A stretch of 55,326 bases of DNA, counting the filler, from Basidiobolus ranarum (lineage: Eukaryota): the NCBI GenBank assembly GCA_040143965.1. It is 4 parts of 4 records of this genome, joined end to end, with 100 filler letters (N's around TTAATTAATTAA, not from the genome) between each part and the next. Parts side by side here need not be neighbours in the genome. Positions count along the whole stretch, not along the records: positions 41,595 to 55,326 come from JASJQH010000464.1; 3 more parts are not named here. The stretch is one strand, 5' to 3'. This document shows, one piece after another, positions 52,589 to 55,210 of this stretch (position 1 is the first letter of the stretch; the number at the start of each line of letters is the position of its first letter). Made by a program: the position numbers and the translations under genes. Below the pieces are notes generated by a model. The model did not search any database, had not been told where the DNA came from, and was given only the letters and a program-made list of their open reading frames with translations.

Positions 52589-55210
52589 ATGACGCCACAC
52601 GAAAATCATTCTCACATACCGGAGTCACGTAGGTTGCTAATCTTGTATGGCTCGCAAACTGGCTGTGCTCAAGACGTAGCTGAACGAATATGGCGTGAGG
52701 GAATTAGAAGACATTTCGCCTCAGAAGTCCTTTCTATGGACGATTATGATATTGTAATTTATTTATCTTATACCCTTGTTACTATCAACTCAGTAAGAGA
52801 TAACAATTCCCTACTTCCTTGCTTTTAGAATGAATTAGTTCATGAAAAATTGGTGATTTTCGTATGTTCTACTACTGGACAAGGTGAAGAACCGGATAAT
52901 ATGAAGGTATGAAAGTATCGGTTTATTTATGAATAAGCATGAAATAATTTGTTAACTGAAACTTCCATCTGTCTTCTAGAAATTTTGGAAGTTTTTGTTG
53001 AGAAAAGCTTTACCTCGAGATGTATTAGAGCAAATGGAATATACAGTGTTCGGTTTAGGAGATTCTTCTTATCAAAAGTACTCTTCTTATTTTAGTTGTT
53101 GTAGTGGACAAACATTTACTACTCGTTGAAAGAATATGTCTCTAATGGTTATCGATTGTGGTTTATTAAGGTTTAATTTTCCTTCGAAAAAATTGTACAA
53201 AAGATTGAGTCAACTTGGTGCACAGGGATTTTTCCCAAGAGGAGATGGGGATGATCAACATTATTTAGGGTAAACACTTTCATTGTAACATATGGTTTAT
53301 GTGACCACTCTAACTCGTTCTTGGATATATTAGTGTGGATGGAACTTTAAATTCTTGGTTACAAGGTATGTGGGAAACTCTTTTAAGAAAGTATCCACTA
53401 TCTAGTGGACTGGAGATTATACCACAAGAAGTACTATATCCTTTTCGATACTTTTTATATTGAACTATCTATGGATATATATTCTTTCCTTGACTCTCCA
53501 TACCCTTCCTCCTAGTTATAAACTTCGGTTTTTGGACAATCCAACGGAGAAACCCAGCACTAGCAATGAATTGGAAACTGGATTTCAATTAGCTACGCTT
53601 ATAAGCAACCAACGAATCACTCATGTTGAACATTTTCAAGATGTTAGACACATTGAGATAGATATCAGTGATATGAAGAATCAAGGATACAACCCTGGAG
53701 ATGTAGCCGATATACTTCCCAGGAATTTACCAGAAGATGTTGAAGCGTTTATAGAGTTAATGAAATGGTCAGATATCGCAGATAAAGAATTCGTTATAGA
53801 ACAAAATCAACCAGATAGAAGAGTACCTGTACGTCTATTAGGGATAAAAACCATTCGAAATCTCTTTACCTATGATTTGGATTTCCTTGGAGTCCCTAGA
53901 AGATCATTCATTGAAATGTTGTCGTATTTTACTACCGATGAAAATGAAACCGAAAAATTAAGAGAATTTTGCACTACTGAGGGCCAGGTAGATAGACTCT
54001 AACCTTCTAATCGAGATGTTGACCTCTATTTACACCTCTTTTCAGGATGACTTTTACACCTACGCTAATAGAGTTAAAAGAACCACCTTTGAGGTGTTGC
54101 AAGATTTTCACTCACCAAAGATTTCCTTGGACTATTTGATGGATATTTTCCCAATCATTCGACATCGGTCATTTTCCATCTCTTCTTCCCCCACGGTTAG
54201 TGATCGGAAAGGTTGAATTCTTTAGTTAATTCTCGACTTACATTCTATTGGGATTCAGGTTCATCCCTCTCAAGTTCATCTAACAGTTGGTATTGTCCAA
54301 TATAAGACCAAACTTCAAGCCCCTCGTACTGGAGTCTGTACCAAATGGATGGCGCAGTTAGGTTGGTAAAATTCAACCAACATCCCTAGAAATTTTACTT
54401 AATCATTCATCTATATCCACTAGATCAGGGTAGTAGGATTCCAATTCGATTTTCCAAAGGAACCATGAAACTTCCAGTCACTCCAGTACCTACCATTTTC
54501 ATCGGCCCAGGTAAATCCCATGATCGGAAAACGCCCTCAATTGAAATTCATTAATCAATGGAATCTAGGAACGGGTATTGCCCCAATGCGATCCTTCATT
54601 GAAGAAAGAGTTAATGCTGGATGTATGGGTATGTCGAAATTCTTGTAGATCATTCTTAGTGGATCCCTTAGATACTAAATTCATTGATTTAGAAAATTAT
54701 TTGTTCTTTGGTTGTCGATATACTTCCATGGATTATCATTATCGTCAACAGTGGGAAGAATATGCCGCAAAGGGTCAACTTAAATTATATATTGCTGCTT
54801 CTAGAGATCAAGTAATTCATTACTTTGACGGTGACCCTCTTACCCATACCCATAACCATAACTTATATATTACTTCATACAATTCAGGATGAGAAAATCT
54901 ACGTTCAACATAAACTACTGGAAGAAGGAGCTATGTTATGGAACCTAATTTCACACCATGAAGCGGTGATTTTCCTATCCGGGTAAGTAATTCCACTCCA
55001 CTCCATTCCATTCAATGAAATGTCCTAACCATTTTATGTTCTTTACTAAATGAAATCTCTCCTAGAAATGCCAATCGAATGCAAAAAGATGTAAATTCCG
55101 CATTAATCGAAATCATTCAAATTCATGGGAATATGTCAGAAATCGAAGCCATTTCATATCTTAATTCATTGGAAAAATTCAAGAGATTTCAACAAGAATG
55201 TTGGTTCTAA
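52589..55210 (+). CDS. TAH18: NADPH-dependent diflavin oxidoreductase 1 (NDOR1/Tah18), 13 exons
   Basis: [108 protein letters not shown], ends QQECWF*. Confidence 0.95.
53436..53503 (+). other. U12-type AT-AC intron (68 nt) in NDOR1/TAH18
   Basis: 5' ATATCCTTT; branch TTCCTTGAC at 53486-53494; 3' end ...CATAC. Removal joins IIPQEV-L-LPPSYKL in frame; unspliced reading stops at TGA 53461. Confidence 0.92.

Follow-up and report, generated by a model that had tools for sequence, protein, structure and literature searches.

An intron of probable minor class, with AT-AC ends, in the NDOR1/TAH18 gene of Basidiobolus ranarum

Introduction

Minor introns and a minor spliceosome are already on record for the genus Basidiobolus (PMC10639083, PMC11347168). 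For B. meristosporus, Larue & Roy 2023 (PMC10639083) give 249 minor introns (0.554%), and Olthof et al. 2024 (PMC11347168) give 237; in the part of the latter's supplement consulted, U11 and U6atac of this species lie above the Rfam threshold while U12 and U4atac lie below it. U12 introns of Rhizopus and Phycomyces have been described as well (PMC2846911, in the part consulted). A survey of minor snRNAs (Davila Lopez et al. 2008, PMC2396436, section 16) distinguishes a U6atac "CC variant", in which [GU]CCGA replaces AAGGA, and calls it hard to explain; the hosts named are cnidarians, Trichoplax, Acanthamoeba, Physarum, Physcomitrella and oomycetes, whereas the fungi in that survey (Rhizopus oryzae, Phycomyces blakesleeanus) have AAGGA. 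Where introns change class, conversion is assumed to run from minor to major, according to the part of PMC10639083 consulted.

In yeast and human, Tah18/NDOR1 donates electrons to Dre2 during cytosolic Fe-S assembly, as stated in the part of PMC11941123 consulted. The consulted part of PMC4463651 names NDOR1 solely for its 49-nt intron 12. Our literature searches, which lacked most subscription papers, found no paper on the NDOR1/TAH18 intron considered here. The gene is not named in those supplements of the B. meristosporus studies that were searched; the databases introns.info and MIDB lay outside that search and may list the orthologous intron.

The intron described here belongs to the NDOR1/TAH18 gene of B. 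ranarum, the same genus but a different species. It was studied in a window of 55,326 nucleotides, by which we mean the whole stretch of DNA analysed, with N spacers at 13777-13876, 27645-27744 and 41495-41594; the NDOR1 intron is on G000:C464. Since the window consists of four joined pieces, genes in its other parts are not shown to be neighbours of NDOR1. On the NDOR1 strand, upstream of the gene, window positions 50269-51327 (+) hold a 352-aa open frame with two terminal C2H2 zinc-finger-like motifs.

Results

The gene and its fifth intron

A preliminary description of this DNA had recognized an early-diverging fungus and an NDOR1/TAH18 gene, and both identifications hold. Exon 6 matches a named Basidiobolus ranarum protein at 100% identity. 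The predicted product has three Pfam domains (Flavodoxin_1 at residues 18-144, FAD_binding_1 at 210-422 and NAD_binding_1 at 452-557), carries no N-terminal extension, and has named NDOR1 proteins as its nearest matches, with the intron falling in a linker between domains. No other diflavin reductase found in the genome exceeds 43% identity to it, and a search of the genome for a close second NDOR1/TAH18 copy found none. Several diflavin-reductase paralogues are intronless in a genome that is otherwise intron-rich (G000:C6991, C8022, C6884, C8339, C7144, C218 and C8020). Some of these sit inside open frames of about 1200 aa, which we take to be possible P450-reductase fusions.

Features of the locus, in window coordinates, are as follows.

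52589..55210, + strand: NDOR1/TAH18 coding region of 13 exons, encoding 594 aa; besides the AT-AC intron it has 11 GT-AG introns of 58-93 nt
53334..53435, + strand: exon 5, 102 nt (34 codons), phase 2 at both ends
53436..53503, + strand: predicted U12-type AT-AC intron, intron 5 of 12, 68 nt, phase 2, codon 181 (Leu), in the FMN-FAD domain linker
53436..53445, + strand: U12-type 5' splice site ATATCCTTTT; 7 bp with the U11 5' end of the same genome, -5.8 kcal/mol (computed)
53461..53463, + strand: in-frame TGA reached on intron retention, leaving a 189-aa product with the flavodoxin domain only
53486..53497, + strand: branch site TTCCTTGAC(TC); 9 bp with the genome's own U12, A53493 bulged, -10.3 kcal/mol (computed)
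53502..53503, + strand: AC 3' splice site, from motif, protein match and junction scoring
53504..53987, + strand: exon 6, encoding linker and the beginning of the FAD-binding domain
53514..53515, + strand: in-frame AG, a possible cryptic acceptor 12 nt past the AC, unused in public models

Intron class was judged by consensus match, by shuffles and by a reversed-pattern control. At 53436, ATATCCTTTT agrees with the donor consensus RTATCCTTT, and TTCCTTGAC agrees with the branch consensus TTCCTTRAC, close to the 3' end of the intron, an arrangement in which a long pyrimidine tract is not needed. The branch core spans 53486-53494 and is followed by 7 bases and then by the terminal AC, which puts the bulged A53493 at -11 relative to the intron end. 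This pair of donor and branch motifs occurs once in the window and in none of 100 dinucleotide shuffles. Removing the AT...AC segment restores the conserved protein, 594 aa long and letter for letter the public record P0059 (KAK9764253.1, NADPH-dependent diflavin reductase). The AT-AC intron first proposed at 53436..53503 therefore has its motifs in place and yields the public product. Both public isoforms (KAK9764253.1 and KAK9764254.1) splice intron 5, and the B. meristosporus protein P0002 has the same junction sequence and is collinear across it. The second public variant (428 aa) runs into major intron 8 (window 54362-54423) and stops there, with loss of the NADPH-binding domain.

The minor spliceosome of B. 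ranarum

A working minor spliceosome had been predicted from the intron, with a search for its snRNAs as the check. In a covariance-model search of the genome, with the best 41-50 candidates scored, each of the four minor snRNAs gave one full-length match (E = 1.7e-14 to 2.1e-5). U11 (84.6 bits against an Rfam cut-off of 39) and U6atac (66.3 against 33) score above the thresholds, and U12 (49.4 against 53) and U4atac (46.6 against 53) just below them. The U4atac/U6atac duplex has a computed energy of -29.9 kcal/mol, and each of its two strands has bases that depart from the Rfam consensus. Both minor-spliceosome protein families tried had matches over the cut-off, namely PF18036, which we take to be the U11/U12-25K family, and PF14968 (CCDC84/CENATAC). 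The four snRNAs, two of them sub-threshold, together with these two protein families bear out the prediction that the machinery is present.

Genome-wide, a strict AT-AC motif pattern has 59 matches against 4 for the reversed pattern; these are pattern matches rather than individually confirmed introns, and two share one donor. A loose pattern in which only ATATC was fixed gave 193 matches against 118 in the control and was set aside as too noisy for a donor consensus profile. A second minor-type candidate, of the GT-AG subtype (GTATCCTTAC ... TTCCTTAAC), lies at window 2801-2877 (+), 77 nt long and in phase 1. It falls inside an Arf-family GTPase gene, presumably ARF6-like, directly after the GKT motif.

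A divergent donor-pairing box in U6atac

The sole U6atac detected among the best 41-50 candidates scored carries GUCGA where the consensus is AAGGA.

L003:1513-1517 (G000:C89, U6atac at 21836-21969): U6atac donor-pairing box GUCGA, from the covariance-model match

The U4atac-pairing stems of this RNA are intact. Against donor positions +4..+8, GUCGA makes two Watson-Crick pairs and one G-U pair with two mismatches, where canonical AAGGA makes five pairs, and the canonical U6atac AAGGA/donor helix is thus absent. A non-canonical box is a property of the snRNA and is seen in lineages with working minor introns, so it has no bearing on the class of the NDOR1 intron. A second U6atac of AAGGA type was sought by covariance model (best 41-50 candidates), by DNA search and by pattern search, and none was found; the pattern search returned one exact match, in the same gene, and two one-mismatch matches that are absent from the U6atac model matches. 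An alternative U6atac/donor register (RNAduplex, -7.3 kcal/mol, intron +6..+13) was discarded as a probable chance pairing, since it depends on CG at +11/+12, which 3 of the 59 AT-AC pattern matches have. Our literature searches for a U6atac box variant in Basidiobolus found no report and led only to PMC2396436. The chance that the GUCGA copy is the working U6atac and the change real, a fungal case of the CC-type variant, seems to us somewhat better than even, the box being known from one assembly of one species.

The intron position in other fungi

When a gene finder reads through a phase-2 RTATCCT donor, the protein model acquires Tyr-Pro, and this served as a signature in aligned NDOR1 proteins. 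Tyr-Pro occurs at or near the intron codon in 14 of 121 rows from early-diverging fungi (a few of them unnamed), versus 1 of 135 control rows, the controls being 145 rows, mostly animals and Dikarya, with the anchor motif present in 135. Nine of the fourteen have it at the exact codon, four (Acaulospora, Cetraspora, Dentiscutata and Gigaspora) one codon later, and one is an N-terminally short model. In 13 of these rows the residue after Tyr-Pro fits T at +8. Among the fourteen are Rhizophagus, Paraglomus, Ambispora, Syncephalis, Thamnocephalis, Phycomyces, Umbelopsis and one chytrid.

Models apparently reading into the minor donor: P0006, P0009, P0016, P0063, P0069, P0076, P0080, P0088, P0089, P0101, P0107, P0117, P0130, P0141

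Four further models (P0004, P0010, P0136 and P0142) have deletions around the intron codon, which is not read-through. Both the read-through and the deletion models are probably annotation errors. The signature is imperfectly specific, because the one control exception, the basidiomycete Calocera (P0021), has Tyr-Pro without an indel; and the 107 of 121 fungal rows without read-through are uninformative, because absence of the intron and its correct annotation look alike. With B. ranarum viewed at the DNA level and the other fungi through protein models, the U12 state of the NDOR1 intron seems to have been kept across several fungal subphyla.

The remark in the preliminary description that AT-AC introns are routinely mis-annotated thus applies to the orthologues, 14 of 121 of which read into the donor, but not to B. 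ranarum itself, where both public isoforms use the junction and splicing yields exactly the public record of 594 aa. For annotators, the codon is a flag: splicing appears to be wrong here in at least 14 public NDOR1 models, which come from Glomeromycotina, Zoopagomycota, Mucoromycotina and one chytrid.

The intron position in animals and other eukaryotes

Among 28 pairs compared for vertebrate NDOR1, 4 or 5 have a break at or adjoining the aligned codon; the breaks are features of gene models, from which phase and intron type are not read directly, and one cichlid model also fits phase 0. In an armadillo isoform a gap directly follows the aligned codon; a cichlid model is missing exactly 34 residues, matching the 102-nt exon 5 of B. 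ranarum. PMC8280824 has human U12 tables that list PTEN and ZDHHC13; NDOR1 does not occur in 12 of its 13 supplementary files, and this absence suggests conversion in animals. The comparison with animal orthologues proposed at the outset found breaks at the same codon and a shared exon span, but no NDOR1 entry in the human U12 tables examined.

A metagenome scan covered 80 loci, mostly intronless genes or transcripts, and none of the 80 has a U12 intron at this codon. Three end at or before the codon, and one, L074, has an intron there (L074:1161-1230), GT-AG, 70 nt, phase 2, at the equivalent of codon 181, with major-type signals. Among named BLAST matches the highest identity is 51%, to Capsaspora, and a quick tree (midpoint root, no outgroup) separates it from the 21 fungal rows and groups it with the other 18 (SH-aLRT 96); L074 is probably from a non-fungal eukaryote. 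It shares a second intron position with the B. ranarum gene (GT-AG, at about 1739-1793, junction before codon 343). For plants, the main text of the DROL1 preprint has no mention of NDOR1, and neither has the supplement of PMC2831892, where control terms gave nothing either.

From these comparisons we infer that the opisthokont ancestor had a U12-type intron here, which was kept as such in several fungal lines and converted or lost elsewhere. It is reasonably likely that the intron predates the animal-fungus split, having stayed AT-AC in early-diverging fungi and become major-type in animals.

Regulation of the intron and alternative junctions

The preliminary description suggested that the intron could rate-limit the Fe-S electron donor; slow minor splicing or regulated retention of intron 5 would then throttle Tah18 and with it cytosolic Fe-S assembly. 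None of the analyses lent this support, and we consider it unlikely. Retention would reach a stop at codon 190, right after the flavodoxin domain, with decay or an FMN-only fragment as the likely outcome; the U12 state has apparently been retained across several fungal subphyla; and a switch role for minor introns has been proposed in human cells (PMC3728624, in the part consulted). However, both public isoforms splice intron 5, and the only intron that either seems to keep is intron 8, of the major type. The gene evidently works without intron 5, given that the human U12 list examined does not include NDOR1 and that many homologues are uninterrupted at this position. The consulted part of PMC10639083, moreover, favours neutral evolution of minor introns and reports no proliferation-linked rise of minor splicing in Rhizophagus. 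Were slow removal of intron 5 nevertheless real, it would couple minor-spliceosome activity to cytosolic Fe-S assembly. The full combination of an AT-AC intron older than the animal-fungus split and converted in animals, splicing by a CC-like U6atac, and slow removal that throttles Tah18 is distinctly improbable.

As to the choice of junction, the earlier claim that AT-AC removal is required to keep the frame stands in part. Retention does stop after 189 aa, and the GT-AG alternative rejected in the preliminary description as out of frame (53366-53515, 150 nt) does lead to a stop after 182 aa; but 33 GT/GC-AG pairs, many AT-AN pairs and the pairing of the AT donor with AG 53515 also leave the frame open. 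Against eight orthologues, the AT-AC junction ranks first of 315 open-frame junctions with a summed score of 2286. The second-ranked junction reaches 2203 over the same eight and has a donor without U12 consensus. The GT/GC-AG junctions and the other AT-AN junctions were rejected on this ground, every one of these options falling below the AT-AC junction.

A-type minor introns with other 3' ends exist, and AG 53515 is in frame only 12 nt past the AC, which makes it a candidate main or alternative acceptor for the minor donor. Its use would give a 590-aa isoform without LPPS, four residues conserved from fungi to vertebrates. This junction scores 2089 versus 2286, is lower against all eight orthologues, and would move the branch A from -11 to -23; in the public models the AC is the acceptor. 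We regard splicing to AG 53515 as very improbable. That the motifs are chance, with GT-AG major splicing or a gene broken by an assembly frameshift, is barely credible despite the 33 GT/GC-AG pairs that leave the frame open, since none of the shuffles yields the motif pair, the best GT-AG model reaches 1853 against 2286, and the B. meristosporus protein runs collinear through the junction.

Discussion

The segment 53436-53503 is very probably a genuine, constitutive minor-class AT-AC intron, and as such probably an old relic and not a regulator. Its removal by the minor spliceosome is predicted from motifs, homology and the public gene model. Established minor-spliceosome biology and the pairings computed here suggest the following course. 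U11, complementary to the donor over 7 bp, would pair with intron positions +4..+10; U12, with 9 bp around the bulged A53493, would pair with the branch site; and U4atac would deliver U6atac. The AC 11 nt past the branch point would mark the end of the intron, and joining to exon 5 would give the full FMN-FAD-NADPH reductase. This enzyme would feed electrons to Dre2 for cytosolic Fe-S assembly, a role carried over by analogy from the yeast and human proteins to Dre2/anamorsin in B. ranarum. The intron position would be common to early-diverging fungi, U12-type here and major-type or lost in other lineages.

As a single intron the finding has little weight, as its class, genus and junction are all on record. 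The junction is already annotated and the genus already published as rich in minor introns, and the observation is largely expected. What is added is a little: apparent retention in fungi versus conversion in animals, and a CC-like U6atac.

Compared with the minor introns of B. meristosporus, that of B. ranarum agrees in genus, intron class, consensus signals and the pattern of snRNAs above and below threshold, and differs in coming from another species. The records KAK9764253.1 and KAK9764254.1 already have the junction annotated, with an identical 594-aa model, but as protein records are silent on intron class, age and the U6atac variant. The vertebrate NDOR1 junction (codon 171) breaks at the aligned codon and ends an upstream exon of the same 34-codon span; it is absent from the human U12 tables examined and so is probably major-type there, a difference from the B. 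ranarum intron. A minor intron kept in fungi and apparently converted in animals is the reverse of the usual picture, and fungal-retained introns of this kind would be missed by human-centred catalogues.

The closest parallel to the U6atac is the CC variant of PMC2396436. Like it, the B. ranarum box lacks AAGGA, shares CGA and pairs poorly with a normal U12 donor; unlike it, GUCGA is one base off [GU]CCGA, and the box is CC-like only. The puzzle of PMC2396436 is minor splicing despite incomplete U6atac-donor pairing, and with a GUCGA U6atac beside dozens of ATATCCTTT donors, B. ranarum offers a culturable fungus in which that puzzle could be addressed.
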